This document shows positions 24,629 to 50,422 of a stretch of 64,000 nt of DNA, one piece after another. Source of the stretch: Pseudomonadota bacterium. GTDB lineage: Bacteria > Bdellovibrionota_C > UBA2361 > OMII01. The DNA lies in assembly GCA_046300175.1 (NCBI GenBank), contig JBKCMS010000065.1, positions 11,270 through 75,269 on the forward strand, in the 5' to 3' direction. Position 1 is the first letter of the stretch; every line of letters begins with the position of its first letter. Both the position numbers and the translations under genes were made by a program. A model generated the notes under the pieces. That model was not told the origin of the DNA and searched no databases. It saw only the letters and a program-made list of their open reading frames with translations.

Positions 24629-24636
24629 TCAGATAA

Positions 24637-30297: not shown

Positions 30298-31353
30298 ATG
30301 ACTAACGATATATCTCCAGCTAGTTTAGCCAAGCTCTCAGCGTCTTTTGAGCAGCAACTTCGCGACGTTCAGCAGCAGTCAGACATTGAGTTGCTTAAAC
30401 GTGATTGGTTGGCCAAGGAGGGTATCATCAAGGAGCTTTTTAAGGGCCTACGAGACGTTGCGGCTGATCAGAAGCCGGTCGTAGCAGCACAGCTAAACGC
30501 TTTAAAGAATAAGGTAGAGAGCGGGATTGAGGCTAAGGAGCAGGAGTTTAAGCTTGGGGCGCTCCGTAAGCAGCTGGAGGATGAGTATCTGGACCTGTCG
30601 TTACCGGAGATGGGTGGTGGGTTGGGAAGTGTGCATCCGATAACGATTGTCGAAGAGCGCATCACCGAGATTCTGCGGCCATTTGGCTTTGAAAGCGTTA
30701 TGGGCCCTGAAATCGAAACTGAGTATTACTGCTTTGATTCGCTGAATATCCCTGCCCACCACCCTGCTCGTGACATGCAAGACACGTTTTATACTGAGAC
30801 CGGGCACGTGTTGAGAACGCATACAACTGCCGTCCAGGCCCGCATGCTGCAAAATAGAGCCCTTTTTCAGGGTAAAAAGCTTCCCTTAAAGGTGGCTTCG
30901 TTTGGCAAGGTCTATCGTAACGAGAATGAGGATGCATCGCACCAGGCAGTCTTTCACCAGTACGAGCTCGTTTGGGTTGAGAAGGGACTGACTTTGTCTA
31001 ATTTGCAGGCGCTGATTACACATATTCTCAAAGAGCTATACGGCAAGCGCCGAAAGGTGCAATTTGTCCCAAAATTCTATCCGTACACAGAGCCAAGTAT
31101 CGGTCCGCGTATAGACTGTGCGATCTGTCGGGGCGCTGGATGTCCGGCGTGCGGAAGCTCGGGGTGGGTGACTGTGGCAGGGGCAGGTATGATTCACCGT
31201 AATGTATTAGCCGAGTTTGGTTTTGATCCGAGCGAGGTATCAGGATTCGCTTTTGGTTTGGGAACATCGCGCTTAGCGGCCCAACTCTTCAATCTGCCGC
31301 ATTTAAGAGCAGTATACGAGAACGATTTACGGGTTTTGCGGGAGGTTGTATGA
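30298..31353 (+). CDS. pheS: Phenylalanine--tRNA ligase alpha subunit
   Basis: It has class II aaRS motifs (FYTETGHVLRTHTT, GFAFGLGTSRLA) and a Cys4 knuckle CAICRGAGCPACG in the catalytic-domain loop. Confidence 0.9.
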   Translation: MTNDISPASLAKLSASFEQQLRDVQQQSDIELLKRDWLAKEGIIKELFKGLRDVAADQKPVVAAQLNALKNKVESGIEAKEQEFKLGALRKQLEDEYLDLSLPEMGGGLGSVHPITIVEERITEILRPFGFESVMGPEIETEYYCFDSLNIPAHHPARDMQDTFYTETGHVLRTHTTAVQARMLQNRALFQGKKLPLKVASFGKVYRNENEDASHQAVFHQYELVWVEKGLTLSNLQALITHILKELYGKRRKVQFVPKFYPYTEPSIGPRIDCAICRGAGCPACGSSGWVTVAGAGMIHRNVLAEFGFDPSEVSGFAFGLGTSRLAAQLFNLPHLRAVYENDLRVLREVV

Positions 31354-33476: not shown

Positions 33477-33529
33477 AGCGAATTATGAGGGCCAGTTATC
33501 GTCGACAGGTGATTTATAACTCCACAGCG

Positions 33530-33820
33530 ATGGTCGCGATACTGTGTTGCAGTGCTTGCACCTCTCGACCAGCCATAGTTGCTGATCCTCCGCGGCATAC
33601 ACATGCTCCACCTGAGCTTGTACCGTGGGAAGAGGAGTACGCACGTATGCGCCCACGGCCAGAGATCTTTGATGAGACAGTTAACGGCGAGGAACAACAT
33701 GGATTTAACGGCACACTCGTCGAAGCCAATGAAGATGACTCCGGAGTGCTCAACACAGTGGCTGATGTATTTGCCTTTCCATTTAGGGGCGTTGGGTGGC
33801 TGTTGGAACAGGTATTTTAA
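33530..33820 (+). CDS. Small putative lipoprotein
   Basis: MVAILCCSAC is a lipobox-like signal. It has no homology anchor and may be spurious. Confidence 0.25.
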   Translation: MVAILCCSACTSRPAIVADPPRHTHAPPELVPWEEEYARMRPRPEIFDETVNGEEQHGFNGTLVEANEDDSGVLNTVADVFAFPFRGVGWLLEQVF

Positions 33821-33984: not shown

Positions 33985-34584
33985 TCACACCCCAGGAGTA
34001 GCACGTGCTGGACGTGAGGCTCCTGGAACCCACAGATACTCCGGCTTGTTTTCTGCGCGGACCACTGCCCGCGCCATTACAAACAACAGGTCGCTCAATC
34101 GATTTATGTATCCCAGGATGTGAAGCGATACAGGCTCAATTTTATGAAGCTTACAGATATGCCTCTCGGCGCGTCTGCAAACGGTGCGAGCTACGTGTAT
34201 CTGAGCTGAGATAAGCGAACCTCCGGGCAGGATAAAAGAACGCAGAGGAGGCAGCGCTTCGTTAAGGGTGTCGATCCAGAGCTCTAATTGTTTGATGTGT
34301 TCAGGTCCGGCTTTCAGCATTCCTTCCCAGTGGGCCTCCGCTGGTGTTGCGAGTTCGGCTCCGATATCGAAAAGCTCATTTTGTATAGTAGTGATGATGT
34401 CACTGATCAGCGATGTGGTTGGTCCTGATAATAGCTCTTTACACAGGCCTAGCTGTGAGTTGAGTTCATCAACATCGCCGTATGCCTCAACTTTGATGGC
34501 GTCTTTGTCTATTCGCGCACCGCCAACTAGGCCGGTTGAACCCGAGTCTCCGGTACGAGTGTATATCTTATTTAGGTTAACCAT
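33985..34584 (-). CDS. PduO-type ATP:cob(I)alamin adenosyltransferase
   Basis: The N-terminus MVNLNKIYTRTGDSGSTGL is the hallmark of the PduO/MMAB family, and the size is ~190 aa. Confidence 0.8.
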   Translation of the reverse strand: MVNLNKIYTRTGDSGSTGLVGGARIDKDAIKVEAYGDVDELNSQLGLCKELLSGPTTSLISDIITTIQNELFDIGAELATPAEAHWEGMLKAGPEHIKQLELWIDTLNEALPPLRSFILPGGSLISAQIHVARTVCRRAERHICKLHKIEPVSLHILGYINRLSDLLFVMARAVVRAENKPEYLWVPGASRPARATPGV

Positions 34585-34614
34585 TGGTGATACCTCCTTG
34601 GGTTTGAAAGTGTG

Positions 34615-34878
34615 CTACTCGGCAAGCAAACCTCTAAGCTGCTCAAGGTCGCTTGGGTTACTGGGAAGAGGGTCGGCGACTTCATCGACGGCAGGATAGT
34701 CAGCCGAGCCGCTATTTTCTAACTCTGAAGATGGAGAAGCTGATTTTGCCGGCACGTCATAACTTTCGTCGGCCGCCGGTGGAGACGACATAATGTGAAT
34801 GCCCAGATAGGGGGAGAGTAATAGAGCGGCAGCTATCAAGGCGAGCCATAGTAATATAGGAGGAGGGGAGGTCTTCAC
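34615..34878 (-). CDS. Small membrane-anchored acidic protein (hypothetical)
   Basis: One N-terminal TM helix is followed by a Pro/Ser/Asp-rich tail. It lies upstream on the same strand as the PduO-type gene. Confidence 0.3.
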   Translation of the reverse strand: MKTSPPPILLWLALIAAALLLSPYLGIHIMSSPPAADESYDVPAKSASPSSELENSGSADYPAVDEVADPLPSNPSDLEQLRGLLAE

Positions 34879-35272
34879 AAATATCGTTTTACCTCTTCGG
34901 GGATCCGGAAGCTATACTAGGGTACTAAATAATGCAGCCACGAGCCGTGGTTGCCCACCACCGGCGGTGAGCTGAGCCGTTTGTAACCAATCCGACATCT
35001 TACAATTTCTAGGAGGGGATTTCCAGGTAAATCATGCTGTTGGGCATATTTGCATGTCCGTACTGCAGGATTGGCGTGGCACGGGTCAGGATTGAACGTG
35101 CGCCCTCAAGCAAGGCGTGGAAGATGTAGCTAAGCATTCAGCTCTTGAGTGACATACGAGATTCACCGATAGAGTTAGTGAGCGGTGAGATTTGAGGCGG
35201 TGTCGAAAGAGGCGCCTATGACTTTTTATTTTTGTCAGGGCGCCGTTTAGATTAGCAACAAATAGAGCAGAC

Positions 35273-36286
35273 ATGAGTTCCTATCACGAATCAGGCGAGA
35301 ACAGGCGGGAATTTAAGCGCAAGGGGCAAGCGTTGGGCGGTTTTCGTGCGGCGGGCCTTAGCGATACCGGTTGTGAACGTGAATCCAACGAGGATCGTTT
35401 TTTAATTGAGACACAGGAAGAGGGAGGCGGGTATTTCGTCTTTGATGGAATGGGCGGCCAGCCAGCTGGAGAAACAGCTGCAGCTATAGCGGAGGATGTA
35501 ATACGTGAGATGCTGCTCAGGTCTGAGGGAGGAGACATCGAATCTTTAATGGTTCGGGCAATTGAGTCCGCCCAGGAGGAGATTCTTCAACGACATGAAG
35601 ACCCGACCTCAGTGGGAATGGGTACAACGGCAGTCGGGGTGATAATGCTCGGCAATCGACTTGTCGTAGGAGCAGTCGGCGATTCACGTGCATACCATAT
35701 CAATAGATCGACTATTAGTCAGATCACCAATGATCACACCCTAGTGCAGCAACTAGTTGATGCTGGCCAGATATCGTCTCATGATGCGCTTGTTCATCCT
35801 CAGTCGCACGTTCTCACCCGTTGTCTCGGCTCAAGGGTAGACTTTAGCGTAGATATCCGTTGCTATGCTCTCAAGCGGTCTGCGCTTAAAGGTACGCCCG
35901 AGGAGTGGCTGCTTCTCTGCTCTGACGGCCTATACAGTTTGGTTTCTGACGAGGAGATGAGGACCTTGGTAGTTCAGCTGTCTGCTGATGACGCGGTTAG
36001 TAAACTTGTGGAGCTAGCTCGGTCTAGGGGAGGTTTTGACAATATCACAGCGGTAATCGTCCCCATTTGCGGCCGATTGGTGGCTGAGTCTGAGGAATCG
36101 GATGCTTCGGGGGATTTTGGCAGTTCGCCATATGCACCCCGTAATTTTCGAGGGCCATCTGAACTTGAGAGTGGGAGCGCGATTCAAGATGAATCGGTGT
36201 TGTCTTGGCGTCGTCTGGGCGCTGTTATTGTCTTGAGCGCGATTGTATCAATTTTATCGGTAATAGGATTGCAATTTTTACGATGA
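35273..36286 (+). CDS. PP2C-family Ser/Thr protein phosphatase with a C-terminal TM anchor
   Basis: FVFDGMGG, GTTAVGVIMLGNRLVVGAVGDSRAY and DNITAVIV are PP2C motifs 1, 2, 8 and 11. The C-terminus has a hydrophobic helix. Confidence 0.8.
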   Translation: MSSYHESGENRREFKRKGQALGGFRAAGLSDTGCERESNEDRFLIETQEEGGGYFVFDGMGGQPAGETAAAIAEDVIREMLLRSEGGDIESLMVRAIESAQEEILQRHEDPTSVGMGTTAVGVIMLGNRLVVGAVGDSRAYHINRSTISQITNDHTLVQQLVDAGQISSHDALVHPQSHVLTRCLGSRVDFSVDIRCYALKRSALKGTPEEWLLLCSDGLYSLVSDEEMRTLVVQLSADDAVSKLVELARSRGGFDNITAVIVPICGRLVAESEESDASGDFGSSPYAPRNFRGPSELESGSAIQDESVLSWRRLGAVIVLSAIVSILSVIGLQFLR

Positions 36287-36299
36287 GACAGGAGCTGGT

Positions 36300-37193
36300 A
36301 TGAGCACGGATGCAAATGACAAGGTTCAGTCGAAGTTTCCGCGTGCCTCTTTGAGAGCGCGTAACAAGACTATGATGATTACTCCTGCTGATGTAGCGGA
36401 CTTTCAGGTGCGACCTGATGAACGGGGAATGTCAGCGATCGATCTAGACGACATATTCGAGGACTCACTTGTTGATCAAGAAAATCTTCAACAAAGCAGC
36501 TCGCCGGAATCGACACGAGTTTTTGACAACATGACGGGTGATAAACAGGAAGTCGGTAAGTCAGCCATGAATGCTCTGCAAGATGCTTTAGGGGAAGAGA
36601 TTGAAGACGTTCCTGAGGTAGCAGACCCGATCATTCGGTCGGTTAGATCAACTGAACCGGTGTCTTTCGCATCATTTGATAAGCCAACAATCAGCGGAGG
36701 AGGAGTTATGGGCCAAGGATATCAGAACTACTCTGGAGGCTCTAGCAGCATTCTCGATAGTGCGGCCGAAGAGTTAGCCGATAGTTCAAGCGGGATGCTG
36801 GATAGTACTGCAGAAGATTATGTGGACTGGAGGAAGGAAACTAAGTTGGTAGGTTTCCTGGTGTCGTACGCGCGTGATCCGCGCGGCAGCTATGTAGAGC
36901 TACGCGAGGGAAGGTTGCTGGTGTCAAACGCTAAGGTTGCCGGTGATAGCTGTTTGGTGATCCGCCACGAATCGGTCTCTCCAATGCACGCGATTATGCG
37001 CGTAGCGGCCGATGGCTCGATTCTGATTTTAGACCAGTTGTCGGAGCGCGGAACGCGCATACACAGAGTCGATAGTGACAAAGAGGAATCGCTGATGGGC
37101 GACAAATCCACGATTTGTCACGGCGATGTGGTAGTATTCGGTGAGTGCGAGTATCATGTGGTCATATTAGGTTCTGCGGCTCTCCGTAGGTAG
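36300..37193 (+). CDS. FHA-domain protein with a disordered N-terminal half
   Basis: The C-terminal part GRLLVSNAKVAGDSCLVIRHESVSPMHAIMRV...ILDQLSERGTRIHRV shows an FHA fold pattern (GR...SR/H...N). Confidence 0.7.
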   Translation: MSTDANDKVQSKFPRASLRARNKTMMITPADVADFQVRPDERGMSAIDLDDIFEDSLVDQENLQQSSSPESTRVFDNMTGDKQEVGKSAMNALQDALGEEIEDVPEVADPIIRSVRSTEPVSFASFDKPTISGGGVMGQGYQNYSGGSSSILDSAAEELADSSSGMLDSTAEDYVDWRKETKLVGFLVSYARDPRGSYVELREGRLLVSNAKVAGDSCLVIRHESVSPMHAIMRVAADGSILILDQLSERGTRIHRVDSDKEESLMGDKSTICHGDVVVFGECEYHVVILGSAALRR

Positions 37194-37244
37194 GTCCATT
37201 TGAAACACAGGTCCGTTAATTATAGGCACGGTAAGGATTAGTAG

Positions 37245-38642
37245 ATGAACGAGTCCCATGTAACAACTCTTCAGCCAGGAACGGTGATAGGAGGTAAGTA
37301 TGAGGTGGTAAAGTGCCTCGGTGCAGGCAGCATGGGTATGGTGTATGCCTGTCGCCACCGTGACCTACAGGGACAGCTTGTAGCAGCCAAGGTTCTATTT
37401 AATGAGGTAGCCTCAGATAAAGTTGCCGCGGCTCGCTTTAAGAATGAGATTTTAGCCTCATATGGAGTCTCGCACCCGAACGTGGTGCGCGCATACGAGT
37501 TCATCAAGGACGGCGATCTAGTTGCATACACTATGGAATTCATCGGTGGGGGTGATCTGGCTGATCGCATGAGTCGACCAGAGCTATTGAGTATCGCAGA
37601 GATAATCCGTTTGTTGAGCCAGATGACGGCAGGGGTTCAAGCGATTCATGATGCAGGTATCGTACATAGGGATCTTAAACCAGAGAACATCCTCCTGACC
37701 AATGAGGGCACCGTAAAGATTGCGGATTTTGGAATAGCCAGGAAGACCGATGGTCCTAAGCTTACCGAGCACGGAGGAGTGGTCGGAACTTTGGAGTATG
37801 TTTCTCCTGAGTACATGCTACGTTCTCAGGTAGATTGGCGATCTGATATTTATGCCATCGGTGTCCTGGCTTATGAGTTAATAACTGGAGAGCCGCCATT
37901 TAAGGGAGATAGCGCGTACGCCTCTATCAGTAGGAGGCTTCAAACTGATCCATATTCTCCGAGCCGCTTTAGAGTGGAGTGCCCGATCGGCTTAGACAAG
38001 ATAGTACTCAAGGCGTTACAGCGCGATCCAGATGAGCGTTACCAGTCGGCGATGGAGATGTTTTACGATCTTCAGCAGGTGGCAGCGGTGCTGGGCATAG
38101 CTGAGGCCAGCTCGTCTGGAATACTGATTCCACCCGCATCTATGTTGGCCGGCAAGAGGTATGTAGGCCCAACTCTGAGTAAGGCCGTGGAGCCAGGAGC
38201 GCAGCCGACTGAGACACAGTTTTTAACATCTGATGGTTCGATCGATTTTCAAGGTGTTGGGCCTTTACCATCTGGCGGTATGATTACTTATGCTGATGCA
38301 GACGATGAGTCTCGTGAGCGCCAATCTACCGATTATCTCGAACCGGCAGATATTCTAGATCGACTCGGCCGAGGGCGTGTCAGAGTTAACGATACGGAAG
38401 TCCCTCTGTCTGGAGCTGGGGCTCTTCAGACAAAAAGGTATAGCGGCGCAAAGCGTGTTGGCGGCGAGGCGGCCAGATCTAGCGCCGACAGTAGCTCTGT
38501 TGATGATGGACGCTCGCCTGCGCTTGATATGCTGATTTTGTTCTTTGCTGCCTTGAGTGGCGTAGGGGTAGGGTATCTGTTTCTGCGCCTGATAGCCCCA
38601 TCATTCTTGGCGAAGATCGGAGTATTTGGCTTAGGGTCATGA
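37245..38642 (+). CDS. Hanks-type Ser/Thr protein kinase, membrane-anchored
   Basis: The glycine loop is GAGSMGMVY, the catalytic Lys is VAAKVL, the catalytic loop is HRDLKPENILL, the DFG motif is DFGIA, and the APE-like motif is SPE. There is a C-terminal TM helix. Confidence 0.9.
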   Translation: MNESHVTTLQPGTVIGGKYEVVKCLGAGSMGMVYACRHRDLQGQLVAAKVLFNEVASDKVAAARFKNEILASYGVSHPNVVRAYEFIKDGDLVAYTMEFIGGGDLADRMSRPELLSIAEIIRLLSQMTAGVQAIHDAGIVHRDLKPENILLTNEGTVKIADFGIARKTDGPKLTEHGGVVGTLEYVSPEYMLRSQVDWRSDIYAIGVLAYELITGEPPFKGDSAYASISRRLQTDPYSPSRFRVECPIGLDKIVLKALQRDPDERYQSAMEMFYDLQQVAAVLGIAEASSSGILIPPASMLAGKRYVGPTLSKAVEPGAQPTETQFLTSDGSIDFQGVGPLPSGGMITYADADDESRERQSTDYLEPADILDRLGRGRVRVNDTEVPLSGAGALQTKRYSGAKRVGGEAARSSADSSSVDDGRSPALDMLILFFAALSGVGVGYLFLRLIAPSFLAKIGVFGLGS

Positions 38643-39889
38643 GAGTTCTGATTGTAGACAAAACAACAGAGGCGCAGGCTCTATGCGCTCGCAAGATAGA
38701 GGCTTTTGCCAAGGCCGACCGGGAGATGCTCGACCTAAAAGTTAGGCTGGTCAATGAGAAGGAGGTTTCGGAGCGTCTTGCAGAAGCTGAAGTCATGATT
38801 ATCGGTGCAGGGTTGGCGTCAGAGGCTATCTCCGTAGCGCGAGCTGCCCGTAAAGATGCGGCATGGCTTCAGATCATCATGTTTGTAAGCGATGACGAAT
38901 ATGGTGGAGGGGCGTTTCGATCGGCTCATTCCGTAGGTGTGCGTAAAGTATTTCCTGACAGTGCCAGCTCCCTCGATCTGCTCCAGGAGTTGGTAGCCAT
39001 TCACACAGATTTTCGTAAAGAGGGACGCACCGTTGAAGGCCGCGTGATTGTGGTGGTACACGGGAAAGGGGGAGTTGGCGCTACTTCTGTAGCGGCGGCT
39101 CTCGGTGAAGTATGCAGCGCAGCAGAGCGTAGAACATTGCTGTGGGATTTAGACGTTGAGACTAAGGACCTTAGTCGCTGCTTGGCTGCTGCAGGACCAG
39201 AGGCAAAGATAATTAGTGGGTGGGTAAATGGTAGTCGGGATATCACCAGGGAGACCTTTAGAGATGCGCTCATTCCGATAGCTAGCGATGTATCCGTTCT
39301 GACAGCACCAGACCGTTTTGCGGAATCAATGGACCTAGTTTGCCACGCAGATGGCATGGAGATAGCCCAAAGAGTAGTGGAATTGGCAAAGGTGCTGTTT
39401 GACGTGGCTATTATTGATACAGCTGGACGTATGGGGCCAGCAGTTGGTGGAATCATTCGCCAGGCTGATATTGTGTTGATCGTTAGTGACGAGTCAGAGC
39501 TTGGAGTTACGGCAACAGATCTGTTACTCACCTCGATTAAGCCTCTTATCGGAGGTTCCGACCGTATACGTTTCTTAATGCGAGCATCGGGCGACGGAAC
39601 AGTAAATTTAAAGGAGATATCAGATGATCTTGATTCAACGCACGAGCTCAGCGACGCATGTTGGAGTCTGCCTTACGTGCCATATGACCCCACCGTATCG
39701 TCCTGGCCAGGTAGTGGACATACCCTGTATAGCGCGGGCAACAAGGAGCTGAATCGAACGTTTACAGAGATCGCCCGAGCACTCGGTCTCCTTGATGGTG
39801 AGGCCAACGGTATAGCTGGGAGTCAGGGAACTGCGGCAAACGCCAGTTCGCAAAGCGGTAGAGGGTGGCTAAGGCGACTCTTTAGTTAA
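38639..39889 (+). CDS. cpaE: CpaE/TadZ-like pilus assembly ATPase (degenerate receiver-like N-domain plus ParA/MinD-like domain)
   Basis: VIVVVHGKGGVGATSVAAALG is a deviant Walker A of the MinD/ParA type. The N-terminus MRVLIVDK is REC-like but lacks the acidic pair. The start overlaps the kinase stop (ATGA). Confidence 0.75.
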   Translation: MRVLIVDKTTEAQALCARKIEAFAKADREMLDLKVRLVNEKEVSERLAEAEVMIIGAGLASEAISVARAARKDAAWLQIIMFVSDDEYGGGAFRSAHSVGVRKVFPDSASSLDLLQELVAIHTDFRKEGRTVEGRVIVVVHGKGGVGATSVAAALGEVCSAAERRTLLWDLDVETKDLSRCLAAAGPEAKIISGWVNGSRDITRETFRDALIPIASDVSVLTAPDRFAESMDLVCHADGMEIAQRVVELAKVLFDVAIIDTAGRMGPAVGGIIRQADIVLIVSDESELGVTATDLLLTSIKPLIGGSDRIRFLMRASGDGTVNLKEISDDLDSTHELSDACWSLPYVPYDPTVSSWPGSGHTLYSAGNKELNRTFTEIARALGLLDGEANGIAGSQGTAANASSQSGRGWLRRLFS

Positions 39890-40031
39890 TAAATAAACCT
39901 TCGTTTGTTTTTGGTGCGTTACGAAAAACCCCTAGTATGTTTTTCGGTTCCAGTGGAGTTTTAGTTGCATCACATACTTTAATGTATTTTCAAAAGCAGG
40001 TTGATGATGCATCTTGGTAGTGAAGGTTGTT

Positions 40032-40048
40032 TAGACGCAGCGCGTCTA
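40032..40048. promoter_or_regulatory. Short inverted repeat upstream of flp (candidate operator)
   Basis: tagacgc-agc-gcgtcta lies ~160 nt upstream of the first flp start, in the 320-bp cpaE-flp spacer. Confidence 0.2.
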
Positions 40049-40208
40049 GGGGACCTCGGTAAATTAACTGTAATAGTAGAAAGGAGTGTGTGTGTCGGCC
40101 CCGGGGAGACGCTCTCACCCTTAGTAGTGTGTGCATGTGAGCATGCGGCGATTTAGCGGCCACAATTATCGCTAATATACGCAGCACGCGATACGCTGTG
40201 CAAACGCT

Positions 40209-40400
40209 GTGAAAATTGGAGAAATTATGAATACTCAGGAAAATAAGCAGGTAGCTGATTCAAATAATGAGCGTGGAGCGTCGATGGTTGAGTACGCGAT
40301 AATGGTGGCACTAATCGCCATTATTGCCATTGCAGCTGTTACAACGCTTGGACGTTCAGTCAGTAACCAGTTCAGCACGACCGCAGCGCAGATCAACTAG
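40209..40400 (+). CDS. flp: Flp-family type IVb prepilin
   Basis: RGASMVEYAIMVALIAIIAIAAV carries the GxxxxEY processing motif followed by a hydrophobic helix. It is ~60 aa. Confidence 0.75.
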   Translation: MKIGEIMNTQENKQVADSNNERGASMVEYAIMVALIAIIAIAAVTTLGRSVSNQFSTTAAQIN

Positions 40401-40547
40401 TGTCTCTTTGATCTGCCGTTTTGCAGATCAAAGGATTTAGCTTGAGTTTGCACGTAGGTGCGGATTTTAAAGCGAATCTTGCCCTGAGGCAGCCTGCTTT
40501 AGGCCAAAATTGCCTAAAGAGGGTGCCTCGGGGCTTGGCCACTTCAT

Positions 40548-40599
40548 GGTTGTATATAATAGTTGTGCATAATGGTTGTGCATAATGGTTGTGCATTTT
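40548..40599. repeat. 13-bp tandem repeat x4 between the two flp genes
   Basis: The units are ggttgtatataat, agttgtgcataat, ggttgtgcataat and ggttgtgcatttt. They lie ~85 nt upstream of the second flp ORF. Confidence 0.75.
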
Positions 40600-40684
40600 G
40601 AAGTGCGCCTGCAGTTCCTGCCACTGTTAAAAAAAGCTAAACGCGGTAATTCGAAAAGGTAAATTTCTAAAGCCTTAGCGTTTT

Positions 40685-40888
40685 TTGTTCGAGATGCACA
40701 GTATGAAAGAATTAGAGCCTAATATGAGTGTTAAATCATGTGATCGGTCGAGCGATCAACGCGGCGCCTCAATGGTTGAATACGCGATAATGGTGGCCTT
40801 GATCGCTATAATCGCTATTTTGGCAGTTAGGACCCTTGGTAGAAGTGTTAGTAATCAGTTCAGCACTACAGCATCTCAACTTAACTAG
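40685..40888 (+). CDS. flp: Flp-family type IVb prepilin (second copy)
   Basis: The mature region ASMVEYAIMVALIAIIAILAVRTLGRSVSNQFSTTASQLN is nearly identical to the first flp gene. The start is uncertain, with several in-frame ATGs. Confidence 0.75.
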   Translation: MFEMHSMKELEPNMSVKSCDRSSDQRGASMVEYAIMVALIAIIAILAVRTLGRSVSNQFSTTASQLN

Positions 40889-40980
40889 GGGGATAGTGCC
40901 AAGGTGTGGTAGCTGGTTAGGCTTCTTAGTCTAAGGGCTCTGTTGCCCAACGGGTGTGGAGTGAGGGCCGGGCGCTTGGT

Positions 40981-41832
40981 ATGCGGAAAAATCAGTCCCG
41001 GAATGCAGTAATACTGGTCGTCTTAGCGGCAGCTCTGGTAGCTATAGGGGGTGCTGCATGGTTTCTTTTAGTTAAGAATGAATCTGGCCCTCCCCTGAAT
41101 CACCCACCACAGCCGAGTGCCGCCCTTCCTGTCACTTTAGACGTGCTGGTGGCGATTCAGAACATAGAAGAGGGGGTGGAATTAAAGGCGGCGCTCTTCC
41201 GCAAAGAGAATCGGAGTGCGTCTGACTTTGCCTCACTAGGGGTAGTGGGAGATTTCGATCAGATAGCAGGAGCCTACTCAAAATCTTTTATTCCAGCCGG
41301 TCAACCTCTTTTAGCTGACCACTTGACCTTTCGCGCCCCGGTCAACAGTGTCGTTCCCCAAATTCGCGTTGGATACCGTGCAATAACTATTAAACTCGAC
41401 AAGCAAGCTACCAATGAGGGTTGGGCCAGAGCTGGAGTGCGGGTTGATGTGCTTTGGGCTTGGAAGCAAGGTACGGTAAGCCAGGCCAGTGTTATAGCTC
41501 AGAACGTGAGGGTGCTCTCAAGCGGTACCAGTGTTTCTTCCGAGTTCGGCGGGGAATCAAAGATAATTCAGAACGGCGAGTCTACGGTTACTCTGGAGGT
41601 GTCAACTGAGGATCAGAAGCGGCTAAAATTAGCATCCGGCAAAGGAGAATTGCGACTTCTTCTCAGGGGTGACGAAGATACTGCTGAGTTACCGGATGGC
41701 GCAATACTGACAGTCGAGCAGATTATGGGGCCTCAAGGCGAGCCCAATAAAGCTGGTCCCCCGGACCAGGGATGGGTTGTAATCGACGGCAAAAAGTACC
41801 GTGTAGTAGGCAATACACTAATTCCTGGATAG
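40981..41832 (+). CDS. cpaB: CpaB/RcpC-family Flp pilus assembly protein
   Basis: An N-terminal TM helix is followed by a SAF/RcpC-like beta-rich domain. It sits between flp and cpaF in the locus. Confidence 0.6.
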   Translation: MRKNQSRNAVILVVLAAALVAIGGAAWFLLVKNESGPPLNHPPQPSAALPVTLDVLVAIQNIEEGVELKAALFRKENRSASDFASLGVVGDFDQIAGAYSKSFIPAGQPLLADHLTFRAPVNSVVPQIRVGYRAITIKLDKQATNEGWARAGVRVDVLWAWKQGTVSQASVIAQNVRVLSSGTSVSSEFGGESKIIQNGESTVTLEVSTEDQKRLKLASGKGELRLLLRGDEDTAELPDGAILTVEQIMGPQGEPNKAGPPDQGWVVIDGKKYRVVGNTLIPG

Positions 41833-41941
41833 CTGCTTCTTCTAGCCTCCATAGCACCCCAACTATCTCACTGCTGCATCTTAAACAGGCCTTATCTCAC
41901 GGTGCGAAAGTGCCGATATCGTCATCCAACATTAATGAGGA

Positions 41942-43501
41942 GTGAGATCGGCTGGCGCTGGTCAACCCTCGTTTGCAACCGTAAAACTGGGTGATCCACG
42001 GGATAAAAGACTTATGACAGGACGTGAGCGCAGAGATACTACCAGCATTCAGGGGATGTTCTCTACCCGTGCCCAACCTGCGCGCCCCGGTGCCGCCTCG
42101 GATGCTAAACCAGCAGCCGAATCGGCCAACCCGAGACCGTCGCAGTCTTTAGCGATGAGCGCTGAGGAAGTGGCTAAGCAGTCCTCCATGCAACGGACAA
42201 ATCGTGGCTCAACGAGTCGAACAATGGAGGTATCAGCGGCAGCTGTAACTGTAATGCAAGAAGCTCGTAGAGAGCTCGGGAGCGATAGCGCCATGCAGCA
42301 ACAGCTTGCGACACCTGGTAAAGCTGAAGCTGTTATTAGTCAGGCAGTGGATCGTGTGCTTAAAAAACGTGGCGAGAGCCTCGATGATATCGAGCGCGCG
42401 AATGTAATCCTCACACTACAAAAGGACCTAGTGGGGTGGGGAGTGCTACAGCCCTTGGTCGACAATCGTGAAGTAACAGATATTCATGTGTATGACTACA
42501 AGACAGTGGTATTACAGCGAGGAAAGGTGAGTGAAACAACCGGCCTTTCTTGGCCGTCTCACCAAGCGTATGTCACCTTTCTCGATCGTTTATTACTAAG
42601 GCTCGGCAAATCCCTGACAACCCAGCAGCACACAGTCGATGCGTCTTTCTCAAACGGCATACGCCTGTGCGCCGTTCATGAAAGCGTTTGCGGGCAGAGA
42701 GGGCCGCTGCTGTGTATTCGCGTGCCGCGAATTTCCGAGGTGTCCCTCGATAACTTGGTAAAATTTCAGGTGGCACCACCCTTGATTGTTCAATACCTCG
42801 CCAGCCTAACCCGCAGCGGATTAGCCACTATGATGGTGGCAGGAGAAACAGGGACGGGCAAGACAACGCTGATTAAGTGCTTAGCTACCCAGTTTGGCCC
42901 TGATGAATCAATCGTTGCTGTAGAGGATACCCCAGAGCTTAATTTTCAGCATCCGTACTTCCGCTCACTCGTCTCACGCCCGCCCAACTCAGAGGGTGTG
43001 GGGGAAGTAACCCTCCAGGAACACATTAAGACAACGCTGCGAATGACCCCAACTCGGGTATTGTTAGGAGAGATGCGTAGCCCCTTTTCAGCAGAGGCGT
43101 TTTTGGAGAGTGCTCAGACAGGGCACGTTGGTATGTCAACTGTGCACGCGAGAAATGCGCGCGAAACTCTGGTTCGGCTCGAGAGCTTGTTGGGCCGGGC
43201 ACAGAAATCAGTCGCAATAGATATTATTCGGCAACAGATCGCTCTTGCCGTCGACTCCGTTGTCTGGCTAATACGTGAAAAAGCCACGGGTCGCCCCAGG
43301 ATCGCAGAAGTAATTGAGGTTGGTCATTACGTTGAAGGGCAGATTCAGGTGCGGCCAATGTTCACTCTCATTAAACAGGGAGTAAGACCGGTTTGGAGAG
43401 TGGATTCGTGGGCCAGCAATTTTGCCGAGCAGCTCAAAAAAGACGGGGTGAGTCTGGGTGATTCGACGCAGGAGCTCACTCTACCGGAGACGAATAAGTA
43501 G
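41942..43501 (+). CDS. cpaF: CpaF/TadA secretion ATPase (type II/IV secretion NTPase family) with a ~100-aa disordered S/T/R/Q-rich N-terminus
   Basis: Walker A is MVAGETGTGKTTL. The Asp box and Walker B lie in ESIVAVEDTPEL. The His box is GHVGMSTVHA. The true start may be an internal ATG. Confidence 0.85.
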   Translation: MRSAGAGQPSFATVKLGDPRDKRLMTGRERRDTTSIQGMFSTRAQPARPGAASDAKPAAESANPRPSQSLAMSAEEVAKQSSMQRTNRGSTSRTMEVSAAAVTVMQEARRELGSDSAMQQQLATPGKAEAVISQAVDRVLKKRGESLDDIERANVILTLQKDLVGWGVLQPLVDNREVTDIHVYDYKTVVLQRGKVSETTGLSWPSHQAYVTFLDRLLLRLGKSLTTQQHTVDASFSNGIRLCAVHESVCGQRGPLLCIRVPRISEVSLDNLVKFQVAPPLIVQYLASLTRSGLATMMVAGETGTGKTTLIKCLATQFGPDESIVAVEDTPELNFQHPYFRSLVSRPPNSEGVGEVTLQEHIKTTLRMTPTRVLLGEMRSPFSAEAFLESAQTGHVGMSTVHARNARETLVRLESLLGRAQKSVAIDIIRQQIALAVDSVVWLIREKATGRPRIAEVIEVGHYVEGQIQVRPMFTLIKQGVRPVWRVDSWASNFAEQLKKDGVSLGDSTQELTLPETNK

Positions 43502-43515
43502 GTGTAGGTCGGGTC

Positions 43516-44517
43516 ATGGATCAGCAAACAACTGTCCTGATAATAATCGGTTGTGCAGTCTTTGTTCTGGCGACGATGATCGCTATGGAGATACTACGCG
43601 CGAAACCGGCATCTGGAAGGGGACGCAGAAATTCATTAAGAGGCCAGCTAGAGGATTACAGGCAGGATGTTTCGTTTGCTCAAGAGTCGAACAGTGCCGA
43701 TGCTTTCGCAGGTCGTGCTGATGATCAGGATTCGCCATCCGAGGTAGAGGGACCGCGGGAGAAAAAGCAGGGGCAGACGCTTCGGGCGCGACTTAGGTAT
43801 GCCAATTTGGCGTGGATGCCACCACTCGTCATAACTCTGCTGCAAATGCTTATTAGTTTGGGGCTTTTTGCAGTCGCATACGTTTATCTCAGGCTGCCGC
43901 TTCAGATTGTTGCCGCCGCTCTTGGTCCACTAATAGTGAATGCGTGGATCAATATGCGCATCACTAAGCGCGTCAGAAAGTTTGATGCCGATTTTGCTCC
44001 ATTTCTGCTTTCAGTAGTTGGTATGTTGAAGACTGGACTGAACCCGATGCAGGCATTGGAGGCTGCCGCCGAGAGCCTCGACGAAGAATCCTTAGTAAGA
44101 CAAGAAGTAGAGTTGATGCTTGAGCGCGTGCGCATGGGAGTGCCGGAGGACCGCTCAATAGGTTCATTCGGCGAGGACTTTGACCAGCCAGAGATAGAAC
44201 TATTTGTACAAGCGTTACTTCTGAGTCGAAGAGTAGGGGGTACGCTCTCTGATACACTTGATCGTTTGTCAAAGCAGGTGCGCAAGCGTCAGACCTTCAA
44301 GATGGCAGCAACGGGTGCAGTTTCGATGCAGCGGGGGTCAATCTATGCAATTATTGCAGTCATCGGAGCCGTGCAGGTTTATATGTATTTCATGGCTCCA
44401 GTCATGGTGGTTGGTGCTTGGACAAATCCGAAATTAACGGGATGGGCGCAGGGGGCCGTAGTAATTATATTTATTGCCATTTTAACCGTAAACAAGCTCA
44501 CAAAAATTAAGATATAG
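43516..44517 (+). CDS. tadB: TadB-like pilus assembly membrane protein (GspF-like family)
   Basis: It has an N-terminal TM helix and the TadB/TadC architecture. The T2SS-F-like segment GLNPMQALEAAAESL is present. Confidence 0.7.
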   Translation: MDQQTTVLIIIGCAVFVLATMIAMEILRAKPASGRGRRNSLRGQLEDYRQDVSFAQESNSADAFAGRADDQDSPSEVEGPREKKQGQTLRARLRYANLAWMPPLVITLLQMLISLGLFAVAYVYLRLPLQIVAAALGPLIVNAWINMRITKRVRKFDADFAPFLLSVVGMLKTGLNPMQALEAAAESLDEESLVRQEVELMLERVRMGVPEDRSIGSFGEDFDQPEIELFVQALLLSRRVGGTLSDTLDRLSKQVRKRQTFKMAATGAVSMQRGSIYAIIAVIGAVQVYMYFMAPVMVVGAWTNPKLTGWAQGAVVIIFIAILTVNKLTKIKI

Positions 44518-44531
44518 GTTCGATTTAATCC

Positions 44532-45455
44532 ATGAATGCATCGGGAACGATAGTGCTAATGATAGTTGCGACTCTGGTGGGTCTAGCAGCCATTATTGCA
44601 GCTCGCGTGGTTCGCGAGTCACGTCGTGAGAAGGAGCGATACTCAACGCTGCGTCGGGTCGGTCGCTATGAGAATGTAGTTGAGGCTGAGGCTAGAGAGG
44701 CTGCCGAGGCCCATCAGAACGTAGTGGCAGCGGCTAAGAAGAAAAAGAAGAGGAAGAGAAAGGAGCCTACAGTCGACGAGCTGCTCTTCATGGCCGGCAG
44801 ATTATCGAAATCAGAGCGAGATGCGTTTCAAAAAAAGCGTATCCTGGCGCCGATTATTTACGGTGCTGCAGGTCTTGCTCTCGGCCTGCTAGATGGTACG
44901 TCTGCCAACATGCTTTTATTTTCTGGTGGTGGCGTTTTGGCCGGCTTGATGTTGCCAATGAAGAAATTACGTGGATGGGTCAAGCAGCAGCACGAAGAAC
45001 TCTCCTACTATCTACCTTTAATGATCGAGCAGATATCAATCGGAGTGAGTAGCTCTCTTGATATTGGTCCATGTATTTCTCAGTTAGTGGAAATGGCGGA
45101 CGAACGGAATAGCCATAACGCCACTATAGATCTTTTGAAATATGCGCTTTCATTGGTTAAATCGGGGTCGAGTCTCGATGAAGCTTTGATTGAAATCGGT
45201 CGGGCATCAGGCCAGCATGATTTTAACCAGGCGTTAATTTCACTAGCTCAAGTTACTAAGTTCGGAGGTGAAGTATCGAGGCAGCTTCAGGAGCTAGCGG
45301 ACACGATATCCAGCCAGAGGGACGCAAAGATCGAAGCGACTATACGACAACTGGAGTTAAAGGCGACCGGGCCTGTATCTCTGGTGTTCTTGGCATTTGT
45401 AGCGCTACTGGGGCTTGGAATAGCAGCCCAGATAATGACGGGAGGCGAAAGCTAG
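44532..45455 (+). CDS. tadC: TadC-like pilus assembly membrane protein
   Basis: It is a paralogous GspF-like membrane protein following tadB, with the similar segment SGSSLDEALIEIG. Confidence 0.65.
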   Translation: MNASGTIVLMIVATLVGLAAIIAARVVRESRREKERYSTLRRVGRYENVVEAEAREAAEAHQNVVAAAKKKKKRKRKEPTVDELLFMAGRLSKSERDAFQKKRILAPIIYGAAGLALGLLDGTSANMLLFSGGGVLAGLMLPMKKLRGWVKQQHEELSYYLPLMIEQISIGVSSSLDIGPCISQLVEMADERNSHNATIDLLKYALSLVKSGSSLDEALIEIGRASGQHDFNQALISLAQVTKFGGEVSRQLQELADTISSQRDAKIEATIRQLELKATGPVSLVFLAFVALLGLGIAAQIMTGGES

Positions 45456-45484
45456 ATGGATAACAAGGGTGATGGAGTAGTCCA

Positions 45485-47581
45485 ATGCAAGCATCAATGA
45501 AGATAAGTTTAGCCGACATAGTGTTGATGTTTTTGGTGATAGCTATCGCCGCGATGTTAATCGTGCCGTTGCCTACCCCTGTTTTAGACGTTCTGCTCGT
45601 CTTAAATCTCTCTCTCTCGATACTGCTCCTTCTTGTTGGTCTGTATGTTGGCAGCTCATCAGCCCTTTTCACATTCCCATCAATCCTGCTTCTCAGCACG
45701 CTCTTTCGCCTTGGCCTTAACGTTGCCTCAGCGAGGCTAATACTGAGTCAGGGAGAGGCGGGTAGAGTTATTGAGGCATTTGGTACTTTTCTGATCCGCG
45801 GAGAGATAGTAGTTGGATTGATTATCTTTGCCATAGTCACTGTGGTGAATTTCATCGTTATTTCCAACGGCGCAGCCAGAGTCTCAGAAGTGGCTGCACG
45901 TTTTGCTCTGGATGCATTACCTGGGCGACAGGTGATGATCGACAATGACGCTCGGTCGGGAGTTATATCGGCAGATGAAGCAAGTCGAAAGCGTGATGAA
46001 TTAAGGCGTGAGTCGCAACTGTATGGCTCCATGGATGGAGCTATGAACTTTGTTAAGGGAGATGCGATAGCTGGCATTCTGATTATCCTCACCAATATAT
46101 TCGGCGGTATCTACATGGGAATGTCATCCGGATTGGGACTCTCTGACGCCATTCAGACCTACACGGTCCTCACCGTTGGAGATGGTCTTGTTACCCAGAT
46201 TCCAAGCCTTCTGACATCTATTTGTGCTGGTATAATAGTGACTCGTGTTTCAACATCTGAGCGTTCGAGTTTGAGCGCAGATTTACACACCCAGCTTTTT
46301 AGCCAGCCGATAACTCTCTTGGCTACCGCCGGTGTGCTGATCATCATATCGTTAATGCCAGGCATCCCGATGCTACCTTTTCTGCTGGCGGCTGCCGGCT
46401 TAATTGCGATCGGAATAGTTGGCCGGAAAAAAAGTCATACTCGATTAACAATGCAGGCAGAGGCACCCGGCGACAGTGGAGACGGACTCACGGCGACTGG
46501 CGAGGGAGATGCGGCGGATTCGACGTTAGTGCTGGCCTTGGATAAGACATCACTATTTCGCGTATATCGTGCCCGAGCTGTTGATTACTCGGCCTCTTGG
46601 CGTCGCTTCCGTGAAGTATTCTTTGAGGATACGGGGATCCAATTACCTCTTTTACGCGTAGTTGCCGATGATCTACTACCGCCTGGAGCGTATGTAGTAC
46701 GCCACATGGGGGTTGAAATGCTCTCAGGAACTGTTCCAGATGATGCGATTCTTGCTGAGATATCGAGCACCCAAGCTGCGGTGCTCGGATTTAGATCTCT
46801 AAGAGAGGAGGAACATCCCTGTTCAGGGCATCGCTTATTCTGGACACCACGCACTTCTCGTTCACTTGAAATGCTACAGGCGGCTCGAGTTCGGTACTAC
46901 GATTTTCTGGAATTCATAGCACTGAGAATAGCTCAGGTCACCCGGGAGCATCCTGAGGAGGTCGTATCGGTAACGTATGTGCACTCGCTGCTGCGCCAGA
47001 TTGAGAAGAAGCACCCGGGATTAGTCGCTGAAGGATTCAGACGGGAATTTGTCTCAGTACCCAAGCTGGCCGAGATCGTTCAGGAATTGATTCGTCAAGG
47101 AGTTAGTATACGTGACTTCCGCTCGATCATGGAGTGTGTCGCAGCCTACTGTGCATCTTCTGGGGTTGCTGACAACTCTGAATCGCCGGTTGATCTGGCA
47201 GAAGTAGTACACTTTGTGCGAGCGTCTCGCCGCCGGCAGATAGTTAGGCGATTTGTTGGCAGTGTTAATTCTCTGCCGGTTTTGACCCTCTCACCGGATG
47301 TGGAGCAGAATTTTGAGGAGGCGTCAGCCGATCGTTGGACGACTTCACTTGCGATGGCACCAGAGCTCTATGATACACTTCTTCGAGGGCTGTATTCTGT
47401 TGTGCGACCAACGCTAGCAGCAGGGTGCCTTCCAGTGGCGTTACTTTGTAGCCGAGACATCAAGGAGAAAGTGATCGCTTTTGTGCGCATGAGTGGCTTG
47501 CGTGTATTCGTTACTACTCTCGATGAGATCGATCCGGCTTTTCCGGTCATGCAGATCGGGGTCTGGGATGCGAAGGTTTAG
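45485..47581 (+). CDS. FHIPEP-family export-gate protein (FlhA/SctV homologue), an orphan within the window
   Basis: The N-terminal TM region contains FPSILLLSTLFRLGLNVASARLIL. The segment RVSEVAARFALDALPGRQVMIDNDARSG matches the FHIPEP signature (R-x-[SA]-E-V-[GA]-A-R-F-[TS]-L-D-[GA]-[ML]-P-G-K-Q-M-x-I-D-x-D). GAMNFVKGDAIAGILI is also present. It is 698 aa, typical of FlhA. Confidence 0.8.
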   Translation: MQASMKISLADIVLMFLVIAIAAMLIVPLPTPVLDVLLVLNLSLSILLLLVGLYVGSSSALFTFPSILLLSTLFRLGLNVASARLILSQGEAGRVIEAFGTFLIRGEIVVGLIIFAIVTVVNFIVISNGAARVSEVAARFALDALPGRQVMIDNDARSGVISADEASRKRDELRRESQLYGSMDGAMNFVKGDAIAGILIILTNIFGGIYMGMSSGLGLSDAIQTYTVLTVGDGLVTQIPSLLTSICAGIIVTRVSTSERSSLSADLHTQLFSQPITLLATAGVLIIISLMPGIPMLPFLLAAAGLIAIGIVGRKKSHTRLTMQAEAPGDSGDGLTATGEGDAADSTLVLALDKTSLFRVYRARAVDYSASWRRFREVFFEDTGIQLPLLRVVADDLLPPGAYVVRHMGVEMLSGTVPDDAILAEISSTQAAVLGFRSLREEEHPCSGHRLFWTPRTSRSLEMLQAARVRYYDFLEFIALRIAQVTREHPEEVVSVTYVHSLLRQIEKKHPGLVAEGFRREFVSVPKLAEIVQELIRQGVSIRDFRSIMECVAAYCASSGVADNSESPVDLAEVVHFVRASRRRQIVRRFVGSVNSLPVLTLSPDVEQNFEEASADRWTTSLAMAPELYDTLLRGLYSVVRPTLAAGCLPVALLCSRDIKEKVIAFVRMSGLRVFVTTLDEIDPAFPVMQIGVWDAKV

Positions 47582-47615
47582 CATATAGTATGTTACGGGC
47601 GACAGCGGGTACTGT

Positions 47616-49925: not shown

Positions 49926-49970
49926 GAAGTGTTTAAAGTCAATTTTCCTCGGGGCTCGCCCGAGACTTAT

Positions 49971-50154
49971 AAACCCAGCCTCATTCATTTTTGAAAAAAA
50001 TGAATGAGAATAGTCCCACGTTTATCAGCAACTAGATAGTCTCTTTCTGGAGCTAGAGTTTTTTGTCTTCTGCGGCGCAACTTGGCTACGCCAAGATTGC
50101 GCTCGCCCTGCAATTGCGAGTGATTTTTTTAAAAAATCACTCGCGCAGGGTTTA
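49971..50154. repeat. REP-like intergenic element (long form) with two internal palindromes
   Basis: The ends aaacccagcctcattcattttt and aaaatcactcgcgcagggttta recur contiguously at 58573-58620. The internal palindrome is ccctgcaattgcgagtgattttttt/aaaaaatcactcgcgcaggg. Confidence 0.6.
49980..50008. terminator. AT-rich hairpin 55 nt downstream of the 47616-49925 gene
   Basis: ctcattcattttt-g-aaaaaaatgaatgag forms a 13-14 bp stem. It is part of the left end of the REP-like element. Confidence 0.35.
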
Positions 50155-50243
50155 TGCAGAAGTCTTTGCCAGTGAAACCGGCAAGGCTTTTGCTGTAGTT
50201 CACTATAGGGTATTGTTTCAATGCGCCTCAGTGAATAGGTATA

Positions 50244-50422
50244 ATCCTAAAAACGGCAGTTGCGGGTCCCAAAACGGCGCATCCGGCTAAAATCACTGCG
50301 GCTTTTGAATTTCCGGTGCTCACCCTGACGGTGCCAGGGTTCCGCGCCGAAAATATCAAGATCCTTTGTGCTTTTAACCAGCTGCACCATTTTGGTCCAC
50401 CTTACCTGCCGTTTTTAGGATA
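50244..50422. ncRNA. Candidate structured RNA: ~180-nt long imperfect hairpin (6S-RNA-like architecture)
   Basis: The termini pair perfectly: atcctaaaaacggcag (50244-50259) with ctgccgtttttaggat (50407-50422). The extended arms pair imperfectly: gggtcccaaaacggcgcatccggctaaaatcac against the reverse complement gtggaccaaaatggtgcagctggttaaaagcac. The element lies in a 560-bp non-coding gap. Confidence 0.3.

Follow-up and report, generated by a model that had tools for sequence, protein, structure and literature searches.

A 64,000-nucleotide (nt) stretch of contig JBKCMS010000065.1 (assembly GCA_046300175.1, positions 11,270 to 75,269, hereafter the window) carries the genes for a Tad/Flp (type IVc) filament machine, or rather for that core of it which lies in the inner membrane and periplasm. 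Directly 5′ of these genes lie those for a PP2C phosphatase, an FHA adaptor and a Hanks-type serine/threonine kinase (STK), here called the triad. Directly 3′ lie genes for an FHIPEP export-gate protein and for a membrane protein joining a pseudokinase to a HEAT-like domain. The host is an uncultured freshwater Bdellovibrionota lineage. We consider it probable, though well short of certain, that this is the core of a Tad-type machine controlled by a phospho-threonine switch whose parts (kinase, PP2C, FHA adaptor and pseudokinase receptor) are encoded in the cluster, similar to PpkA/PppA/Fha1 in type VI secretion systems (T6SS), and that the machine was historically coupled to an apparatus resembling type III secretion systems (T3SS). 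Each part of the cluster comes from a known family, and the combination appears to be new. The genes, in order, are:

35273-36286, + strand: PP2C-type Ser/Thr phosphatase with a C-terminal transmembrane (TM) tail anchor (Pfam PP2C, 2.5e-14; NCBIfam Stp1/IreP, 211 bits, below the equivalog cut-off of 230)
36300-37193, + strand: FHA adaptor, 297 amino acids (aa), with an N-terminal Thr motif, a disordered linker and a C-terminal FHA domain (AlphaFold/Foldseek, alignment)
37245-38642, + strand: Hanks-type Ser/Thr kinase, tail-anchored (Pkinase, 7e-53, 180 bits)
38639-39889, + strand: CpaE/TadZ, a MinD/ParA-like ATPase with an N-terminal receiver-like region (AAA_31, 2.5e-10; CpaE-homologue model)
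40227-40400, + strand: Flp prepilin 1, 57 aa, cleavage motif G/ASMVEYAI (sequence reading, Flp_Fap)
40703-40888, + strand: Flp prepilin 2, 61 aa, with an alternative ATG at 40694 (sequence reading, Flp_Fap)
40981-41832, + strand: CpaB/RcpC periplasmic protein (RcpC, 2.4e-18; TIGR03177, 124 bits against a cut-off of 71)
42014-43501, + strand: CpaF/TadA motor ATPase, class II (T2SSE, 1.9e-31; alignment of 57 orthologues)
43516-44517, + strand: TadB platform protein (T2SSF, 2.2e-13)
44532-45455, + strand: TadC platform protein (T2SSF, 1.9e-11)
45485-47581, + strand: full-length FHIPEP protein, a divergent SctV/FlhA-like export-gate subunit (FHIPEP, 1.7e-173, 579 bits)
47616-49925, + strand: 769-aa protein with a pseudokinase domain (residues 5-290), a TM helix (~307-330), a disordered linker and a HEAT-like alpha-solenoid (420-765)

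A preliminary description of the window, made from the letters of the DNA, had placed the phosphatase (35273), FHA (36300) and kinase (37245) genes directly 5′ of cpaE, two flp genes, cpaB, cpaF, tadB and tadC, all on the + strand. Every one of these genes was confirmed where it had been put, and the kinase, FHA and PP2C calls held under domain-model searches, with fold comparison needed for the FHA protein. That description closed the cluster at 45455, the end of tadC, and missed the SctV-like FHIPEP gene and the 769-aa pseudokinase reading frame that continue it 3′ of tadC, two genes no less conserved than those of the Tad set. The components of a Tad/Flp (type IVc) system found here are Flp prepilins, CpaF/TadA, TadB together with TadC, TadZ/CpaE and RcpC/CpaB. 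Both flp genes carry the prepilin motif RG/ASMVEYAI, with Pfam Flp_Fap precomputed on the identical genes of public contigs, and flp2 shares 73% DNA identity with flp1 over 134 nt. The cpaB open reading frame (ORF) opens at GTG 40954, ATG 40981 being the likelier start, and its product has an N-terminal TM segment. Intergenic distances in nt run PP2C-13-FHA-51-STK-(-4)-CpaE-337-Flp1-302-Flp2-92-CpaB-181-CpaF-14-TadB-14-TadC; the FHIPEP gene begins 29 nt after tadC, and the pseudokinase gene 34 nt after the FHIPEP gene.

The association of the triad with the Tad genes is widely conserved. A one-genome-per-species scan with the FHA family gave matches in 92 genomes, 80 of which were kept as loci; all 80 are uncultured metagenome-assembled genomes, mostly labelled Bdellovibrionota, Bdellovibrionales or Oligoflexia, and several come from lakes, judging by their titles. 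Adjacency was counted by tblastn of the window proteins against these loci, considering in each case the loci with enough sequence. The PP2C gene is next to the FHA gene in 74 of 74 loci and the FHA gene next to the STK gene in 78 of 78 (the kinase of locus L029, missed by tblastn, is present as an ORF). From STK to cpaE the count is 64 of 66, and from cpaE to cpaB 55 of 56. The remaining pairs are invariably adjacent: cpaB and cpaF (53/53), cpaF and tadB (54/54), tadB and tadC (50/50), and tadC and FHIPEP (42/42). As the same order recurs in about 80 genomes, the arrangement is not due to chance, and it persists down to 29% identity for the FHA protein, whose N-terminal half is then unalignable, and to 17% for the pseudokinase. 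Linkage of triad and Tad genes far above chance is thus supported. At the 79 STK-cpaE junctions available from genome loci and metagenome contigs (three of them duplicates), the genes overlap in 17, lie 0-30 nt apart in 27 and 31-100 nt apart in 13, and are separated by more than 100 nt in 22.

The enzymes of the putative switch are well preserved. In the kinase the catalytic motifs VAAK, HRDLKPEN, DFG and SPE are intact in translation, and the protein reads as an active Hanks-type kinase; the phosphatase has the metal-binding motifs DGMGG, GDSR, SDGL and DNIT. A C-terminal TM-like segment with almost nothing past it occurs in 73 of 74 PP2C orthologues and 70 of 76 kinase orthologues. Both enzymes lack a sensor domain, and the kinase has no extracytoplasmic sensor, which makes the pseudokinase-HEAT protein the obvious candidate for that role.

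The window member of the pseudokinase-HEAT family has no Pfam match. Of 30 family members, Pkinase is matched in 15 and HEAT_2 in 21. A word-indexed search returned 3 homologues of the 769-aa protein and an exhaustive HMMER search 265 family representatives. BLASTP of the protein against the window kinase was not significant (E = 1.1), significance coming from the family profile alone, which aligned with that kinase by hhalign at 98.5% probability (E 2.6e-15). The predicted structure has a pLDDT (predicted local distance difference test) of 81, and its Foldseek matches are all protein kinases. All 30 members lack the beta-3 lysine (a Trp stands there), the Asn of the catalytic loop and the Asp of DFG (F[IV]G). 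HRD has become CG[D/N]: distant members keep the Asp (CGD), and the window subclade has Asn. Basic residues before the TM helix suggest that the pseudokinase domain is probably cytoplasmic and the HEAT domain extracytoplasmic. The gene also follows FHIPEP in L087 (17% identity), L090, L093, L095 and L096.

The FHA adaptor of the window scores 18.4 bits against the Pfam FHA model, below the cut-off of 20.7, and many of its homologues score above it. A sequence search of the PDB with the family profile gave no matches, so folds were compared instead. Residues 170-290 of the AlphaFold model exceed pLDDT 90, and Foldseek matched the model in the PDB to FHA domains only, with probability 1.0; among them are CdsD/CT664 (the best), FhaA in complex with the pseudokinase Rv3910, GarA, OdhI and DgcB of Bdellovibrio. 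The phosphopeptide-binding loops G204-R205 and S227-x-x-H230 are invariant among 28 aligned family members. Several FHA domains prefer an aliphatic residue at position +3 from the phosphothreonine. The N-terminus of the window protein reads SKFPR-A-SLRARNKT24-MMI, and the family consensus is RARNRT-V-M-L-[TS]-P-E. The strict pattern RARNRT-x-x-[LMIV] is found in 63 of 77 orthologues, most others having close variants, and residue +3 is L, M, I or V in every match. On this pattern of conservation, the Thr of the N-terminal RARNRT-x-x-L motif would be the strongest candidate for the phospho-switch, ahead of the CpaF tail.

The preliminary description had seen in CpaF an unusually long N-terminus and an obvious candidate phospho-substrate and FHA ligand, and both points are weakened by comparison with relatives. 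The cpaF ORF opens at GTG 41942, but its homologues align from M25 (ATG 42014), and the GTG start is probably wrong. After this correction about 70 residues precede the first conserved helix, and in the class II CpaF of Caulobacter 79 residues are disordered (PMC12019362), so the length is not unusual. The window CpaF shares with class II a disordered N-terminal region before the three-helix bundle. Ser and Thr make up 22% of the linker and 15% of the remaining protein. A motif L-x-G-[LM]-F-S-T-R (L-x-G-M-F-S-T-R in the window) is found in nearly all 57 orthologues, separated from the conserved core by a variable linker of 44-138 residues. Its Ser is invariant; its Thr gives way to A, S or G in 8 of the 57, and is for that reason a weak candidate for an FHA ligand. 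The CpaF tail has accordingly been downgraded as the main FHA ligand, the adaptor's own Thr motif being the better candidate.

A scheme for the switch can be proposed on this basis. The sensorless kinase would become active at the membrane, with the pseudokinase-HEAT protein as its plausible receptor or allosteric partner, and would phosphorylate the N-terminal RARNRT-x-x-L Thr of the FHA adaptor, and possibly CpaF, CpaE or the pseudokinase as well. The phosphothreonine could be read by an FHA domain in cis, in a closed state of the GarA/OdhI/DgcB type, or in trans. Altered binding by the adaptor would then license or block assembly or activity of the CpaE/CpaF motor, and PP2C would reset the switch. 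The SctV-like protein may be the mark of an ancestral physical coupling between the Tad machine and a T3SS-like apparatus, still co-encoded in a sister subclade.

Scores place the FHIPEP protein somewhat nearer SctV than FlhA. It scores 558 bits with the SctV model (cut-off 692) and 514 bits with the FlhA model (cut-off 772), below both cut-offs, and in 10 orthologues the SctV model leads by 15-66 bits, likewise below the cut-offs. The best PDB sequence matches of the window protein are SctV at 376 and 328 bits, followed by FlhA at 313, 293 and 271 bits.

A sister subclade extends the cluster further (L093:3745-15991; L096:7392-13891; L095:447-7522; L091:34-8592). In L093 the order is CpaF-TadB-TadC-SctV-pseudokinase-multi-FHA-second FHA-SctJ-75 aa-163 aa-SctQ-SctR-SctS-SctT, with gaps of -25 to 32 nt from TadB on and 126 nt between CpaF and TadB. 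The multi-FHA protein is SctD-like (Pfam Yop-YscD_cpl and FHA), SctQ is a FliMN_C protein, and the 163-aa protein has a faint FliJ match and is tentatively SctO-like. The second FHA protein begins with a zinc ribbon. The order SctV-pseudokinase-SctD-like recurs in L091, L094 and L095, and in L096 one contig holds everything from CpaE up to the SctD-like gene. Among the genome loci, those with Tad proteins most similar to the ones in L093 and L096 (CpaE 77-79%, CpaF 75-77%) are L084, L075, L080, L069 and others. As these loci carry PP2C-FHA-STK 5′ of cpaE, the triad, the Tad genes, SctV, the pseudokinase and the T3SS-like block appear, judging from the contigs, to form one supercluster in the sister subclade. 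Every T3SS-like protein of the block falls below the curated NCBIfam cut-offs and its ring lipoprotein is of the SctJ type, not FliF, which points to a very divergent, injectisome-like system. No SctN, SctU, secretin or needle gene was found in the block before the contigs end. In the window subclade the cluster stops after the pseudokinase and is followed by AhpC/TSA-tig-clpP. In L091 the multi-FHA SctD-like protein has a tail anchor but no periplasmic domain for ring building, its best PDB sequence match being ArnA, and a homologue search with the L091 SctJ returned only itself. The contig of L091 was considered as a continuation of that of L005, from the same sample, and rejected on GC content (31% vs 51%).

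Several known systems resemble the cluster in part. The closest in logic is the H1-T6SS of P. aeruginosa, which likewise has a Hanks kinase (PpkA), a PP2C phosphatase (PppA) and an FHA protein (Fha1) inside an envelope-machine cluster, where they are presumed, as here, to control assembly post-translationally. PpkA has a periplasmic domain, however, and the window kinase has none; the window machine is also of the Tad/type IVc kind with an SctV-like gene, and has in addition a separate pseudokinase-HEAT membrane protein. No sequence-level orthology of the window FHA protein to Fha1/TagH was found, and no T6SS genes among the window ORFs scanned, so the likeness to threonine phosphorylation in T6SS would be one of logic only. 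In GarA/OdhI and DgcB, as in the FHA adaptor, a short Thr motif at the N-terminus is followed by a flexible linker and the FHA domain. The FHA domain of DgcB binds its own phosphorylated N-terminal tail (PMC6733907). Such own-tail binding is known for GarA, OdhI and DgcB, whereas for the window protein, which shares the architecture only, it is predicted from the sequence. The targets also differ, being metabolic enzymes or a diguanylate cyclase in the known cases and presumably the Tad/SctV machine here. The FHA fold is also like that of chlamydial CdsD (CT664/CdsD), an SctD with FHA domains, and more broadly like the FHA-like domains that SctD proteins have in the cytoplasm, but the window protein is soluble and much shorter. 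In the archaellum network of Sulfolobus, the FHA protein ArnA, Ser/Thr kinases and PP2A act mainly on transcription of the filament genes. This network shares with the window cluster Hanks-type kinases, a phosphatase and an FHA protein bearing on a type IV filament, although it is archaeal and its partner proteins are unrelated.

Control of Tad pili is usually ascribed to two-component systems, cyclic di-GMP or cell-cycle regulators. Phospho-Thr input into Tad motors is nevertheless foreshadowed by the FHA-fused CpaF proteins and by the FHA-rich Kil clusters (PMC12019362, PMC8460266), though a kinase is not known to have been assigned in either case. In class III CpaF the Tad ATPase is fused to an FHA domain (PMC12019362), whereas in the window the FHA protein is separate, its domain is C-terminal, and neither Pfam nor the alignment found an FHA domain in CpaF. 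The Tad-like Kil system of Myxococcus is FHA-rich and works with a needleless T3SS* (PMC8460266, PMC12075869). M. xanthus Kil has in common with the window cluster a Tad-like apparatus, FHA proteins, a tie to a T3SS-like system and a predator-related lineage. Kil and T3SS* are, however, encoded in separate clusters with no kinase assigned, whereas in the window the Tad genes and SctV are adjacent, with kinase and phosphatase in the cluster, and the sister subclade has the entire T3SS-like block in one run with the Tad genes. The Kil hallmarks of an FHA-fused KilF, the short secretin KilC and tip minor pilins were not found among the larger ORFs of the window, where CpaF is unfused. According to a 2025 review, Kil and T3SS* seem to occur together only within a single myxobacterial suborder (PMC12428579). 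The preliminary description thought a phospho-Ser/Thr module in a Tad operon an unusual architecture, and the literature searched bears this out: it contained no description of a kinase/phosphatase/FHA triad, or of a full kinase/phosphatase/FHA/pseudokinase circuit, inside a Tad cluster, nor of any Tad cluster with an SctV gene or a T3SS-like block attached to it.

Some observations weigh against a phospho-Thr-switched Tad machine. Every signalling step in the scheme is deduced from sequence and predicted structure. A surface filament could not be built from the window genes alone, as no secretin, prepilin peptidase or minor pilins were found among its larger ORFs, and SctJ, SctD-like, SctQ, SctR, SctS, SctT, SctU and SctN were not detected, the SctV-like gene being the only T3SS gene in the window. 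Three further points can be taken to mean that the triad is a general envelope or cell-cycle module, kept beside the Tad genes by a stable neighbourhood and having no direct regulatory link with them. Gaps of more than 100 nt separate STK from cpaE in 22 of 79 junctions. Loci L046 and L086 hold PP2C-FHA-STK with unrelated genes in the Tad position, from which it follows that the triad can exist apart from the Tad cluster. The unrelated flanks are syntenic too, with Cob adenosyltransferase and pheST upstream and AhpC/TSA, tig and clpP downstream; such syntenic housekeeping genes indicate a neighbourhood that is generally stable in the clade, so that adjacency alone is weaker evidence than usual. 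We nonetheless regard a general module as improbable, since triad and Tad genes are on the same strand and directly adjacent in 64 of 66 loci, even where the N-terminal half of the FHA protein is unalignable, STK and cpaE overlap or lie within 30 nt in 44 of 79 junctions, and a second kinase-fold protein and further FHA paralogues stand at the other end of the cluster. Still less probable is that these bacteria have in the FHIPEP gene nothing other than their flagellar flhA, brought next to tadC by co-regulation of flagellum and pilus or by an accident of operon history. A flagellar operon does lie just upstream of the cluster in L058, with no flhB or flhA after it, and in L093 the FlhA model is slightly ahead of the SctV model (536 vs 528 bits). 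On the other hand, all 11 subclade-A proteins tested score 454-536 bits against the FlhA cut-off of 772, that is 236-318 below it, with the SctV model higher. In addition, the sister-subclade orthologue heads a block whose layout is injectisome-like and not flagellar, having SctR/S/T of its own along with an SctD-like FHA protein and a ring lipoprotein of the SctJ type, and the next gene is always the pseudokinase, never flhB or flhF.

The other two alternatives concern what the machine does and how it is composed. The Tad genes might serve no adhesive or motility pilus and instead supply half of a composite device for killing or secretion on contact, in which a Kil-like Tad apparatus works with T3SS-like export; its assembly would be triggered by the phospho-Thr module upon contact, as has been proposed for Myxococcus. 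This we consider possible but on the whole unlikely. It would account for the SctV-like gene after tadC in 42 of 42 loci and for the sister-subclade cluster running on into SctD-like, SctJ, SctQ, SctR, SctS and SctT, and it would suit a host from a largely predatory phylum. In Myxococcus, moreover, there is functional coupling between Kil and T3SS*, and FHA proteins abound in Kil clusters (PMC8460266, PMC12075869, PMC12428579). Yet the window locus has SctV and the pseudokinase only, followed by AhpC/TSA-tig-clpP; CpaF lacks the FHA fusion characteristic of KilF, and no effector, toxin or tip-pilin genes were seen. A Kil-like machine would be compatible with the same phospho-Thr switch. We advance only tentatively, and with some doubt, the idea that the Tad motor and platform (CpaE, CpaF, TadB, TadC, CpaB), the SctV-like nonamer-forming protein and the pseudokinase-HEAT protein constitute one phospho-Thr-gated Tad/T3SS hybrid machine inherited from a single ancestral cluster. 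Under such a hybrid, the retention of the SctV-like gene with the Tad genes, though the other T3SS-like genes have left the locus, would imply a direct SctV-Tad partnership instead of two independent machines.

The phospho-Thr-switched Tad core, which we prefer to these alternatives, would have wider implications. The kinase, phosphatase, reader, candidate receptor pseudokinase and conserved candidate phospho-site are together in one cluster, as a definite circuit open to in vitro tests. That Tad genes are linked to an SctV-like gene, and in the sister subclade to a whole T3SS-like block, supports the Tad-T3SS* partnership of Myxococcus on independent genomic grounds and from a different phylum, one that is largely predatory. 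The cluster may point to a phosphorylation-switched pilus or secretion machine like those that predatory bacteria use to kill prey.

The preliminary description also proposed that triad and pilus genes form one transcription unit. The kinase stop and the cpaE start do overlap (ATGA, 38639-38642), as can be read in the sequence, and the overlap leaves no possibility of a terminator between them; beyond this point a single unit is unproven, with gaps of 337, 302, 92 and 181 nt around the flp genes. The spacing suggests three tight blocks, PP2C-FHA-STK-CpaE, the flp genes with cpaB, and CpaF-TadB-TadC-SctV-pseudokinase, and the gaps before flp1, flp2 and cpaF are roomy enough for promoters. Three features stand out in the gaps:

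40193-40214: tandem pair of 11-nt units (ACGCTGTGMAA), immediately upstream of the ribosome-binding site of flp1
40405-40434, + strand: stable hairpin right after flp1 (-20 kcal/mol, z = -4.1, weak U-tract)
40546-40596, + strand: tandem array of four 13-nt units (ATRGTTGTRYATA) at a distance of ~110 nt upstream of flp2

The hairpin is a candidate attenuator or mRNA stabiliser, and was the sole notable feature in a sigma-70 and terminator consensus scan of 34400-50600, which gave no excess over shuffled sequence. The tandem repeats upstream of flp1 and flp2 are possible regulator-binding sites. A sigma-54 promoter (TGG-N9-TGC-like) upstream of flp was also considered and rejected, the consensus scan giving 90 matches against 94 expected and none at the site.

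A secretin, TadD, the prepilin peptidase TadV and TadE/F had been reported as missing from the window. None was found by Pfam among its larger ORFs, those below ~100 aa not being scanned, and a secretin, a prepilin peptidase and minor pilins were also not found within 10 kb either side of the cluster in relatives. These parts are most likely encoded elsewhere in the genome. The accompanying suggestion of a monoderm host is contradicted by the O-antigen/lipopolysaccharide (LPS) genes and CpaB/RcpC in the window and by relatives that are all Bdellovibrionota, from which we take the host to be diderm. The LPS/O-antigen set, at 12580-26331, comprises a nucleotidyltransferase, SIS and HAD heptose-pathway enzymes, a Wzm/Wzt exporter with a Wzt C-terminal domain, several glycosyltransferases, one of them a 1000-aa two-domain protein, and a 564-aa ORF without a Pfam match.

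The surroundings of the cluster vary in some relatives. At L046:8652-19797 the triad again stands beside the Cob adenosyltransferase gene, and genes for DUF3313, glutathione peroxidase, acyltransferase and M16 peptidase proteins replace the Tad genes; L086:3941-15167 is a second triad locus without an adjoining Tad cluster. In one subclade about 7.5 kb lies between the Cob adenosyltransferase and PP2C genes (L005:835-8451), coding for two sigma-54 activator-type proteins, a response regulator, a 905-aa receiver protein and two small proteins without Pfam matches. This insert may be an extra transcriptional control module for the cluster. L058:2334-7886 holds a complete motA-motB-fliL-fliM-fliN-fliO-fliP-fliQ-fliR operon that stops immediately ahead of the Cob adenosyltransferase gene and the triad, and L053 has a FliP-like gene at the same position. 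With a true flagellar operon beside the cluster, the L058 lineage would be flagellated and have a separate FliPQR.

A 111-aa ORF after pheT and a small hydrophobic ORF beside the Cob adenosyltransferase gene occur in the same places in relatives. PheT itself (31350-33476) is short, at 708 aa, with no match to the N-terminal tRNA-binding domain, and a separate 144-aa tRNA_bind protein is encoded on the opposite strand at 61920-62354, about 28 kb away. ORFs without a Pfam match lie at 27271-28755 (-), 33485-33820 (+), 34615-34878 (-) and 58618-59187 (-). Over the whole window Rfam recognised two tRNAs only, at 51084-51165 (-) and 58429-58501 (+).

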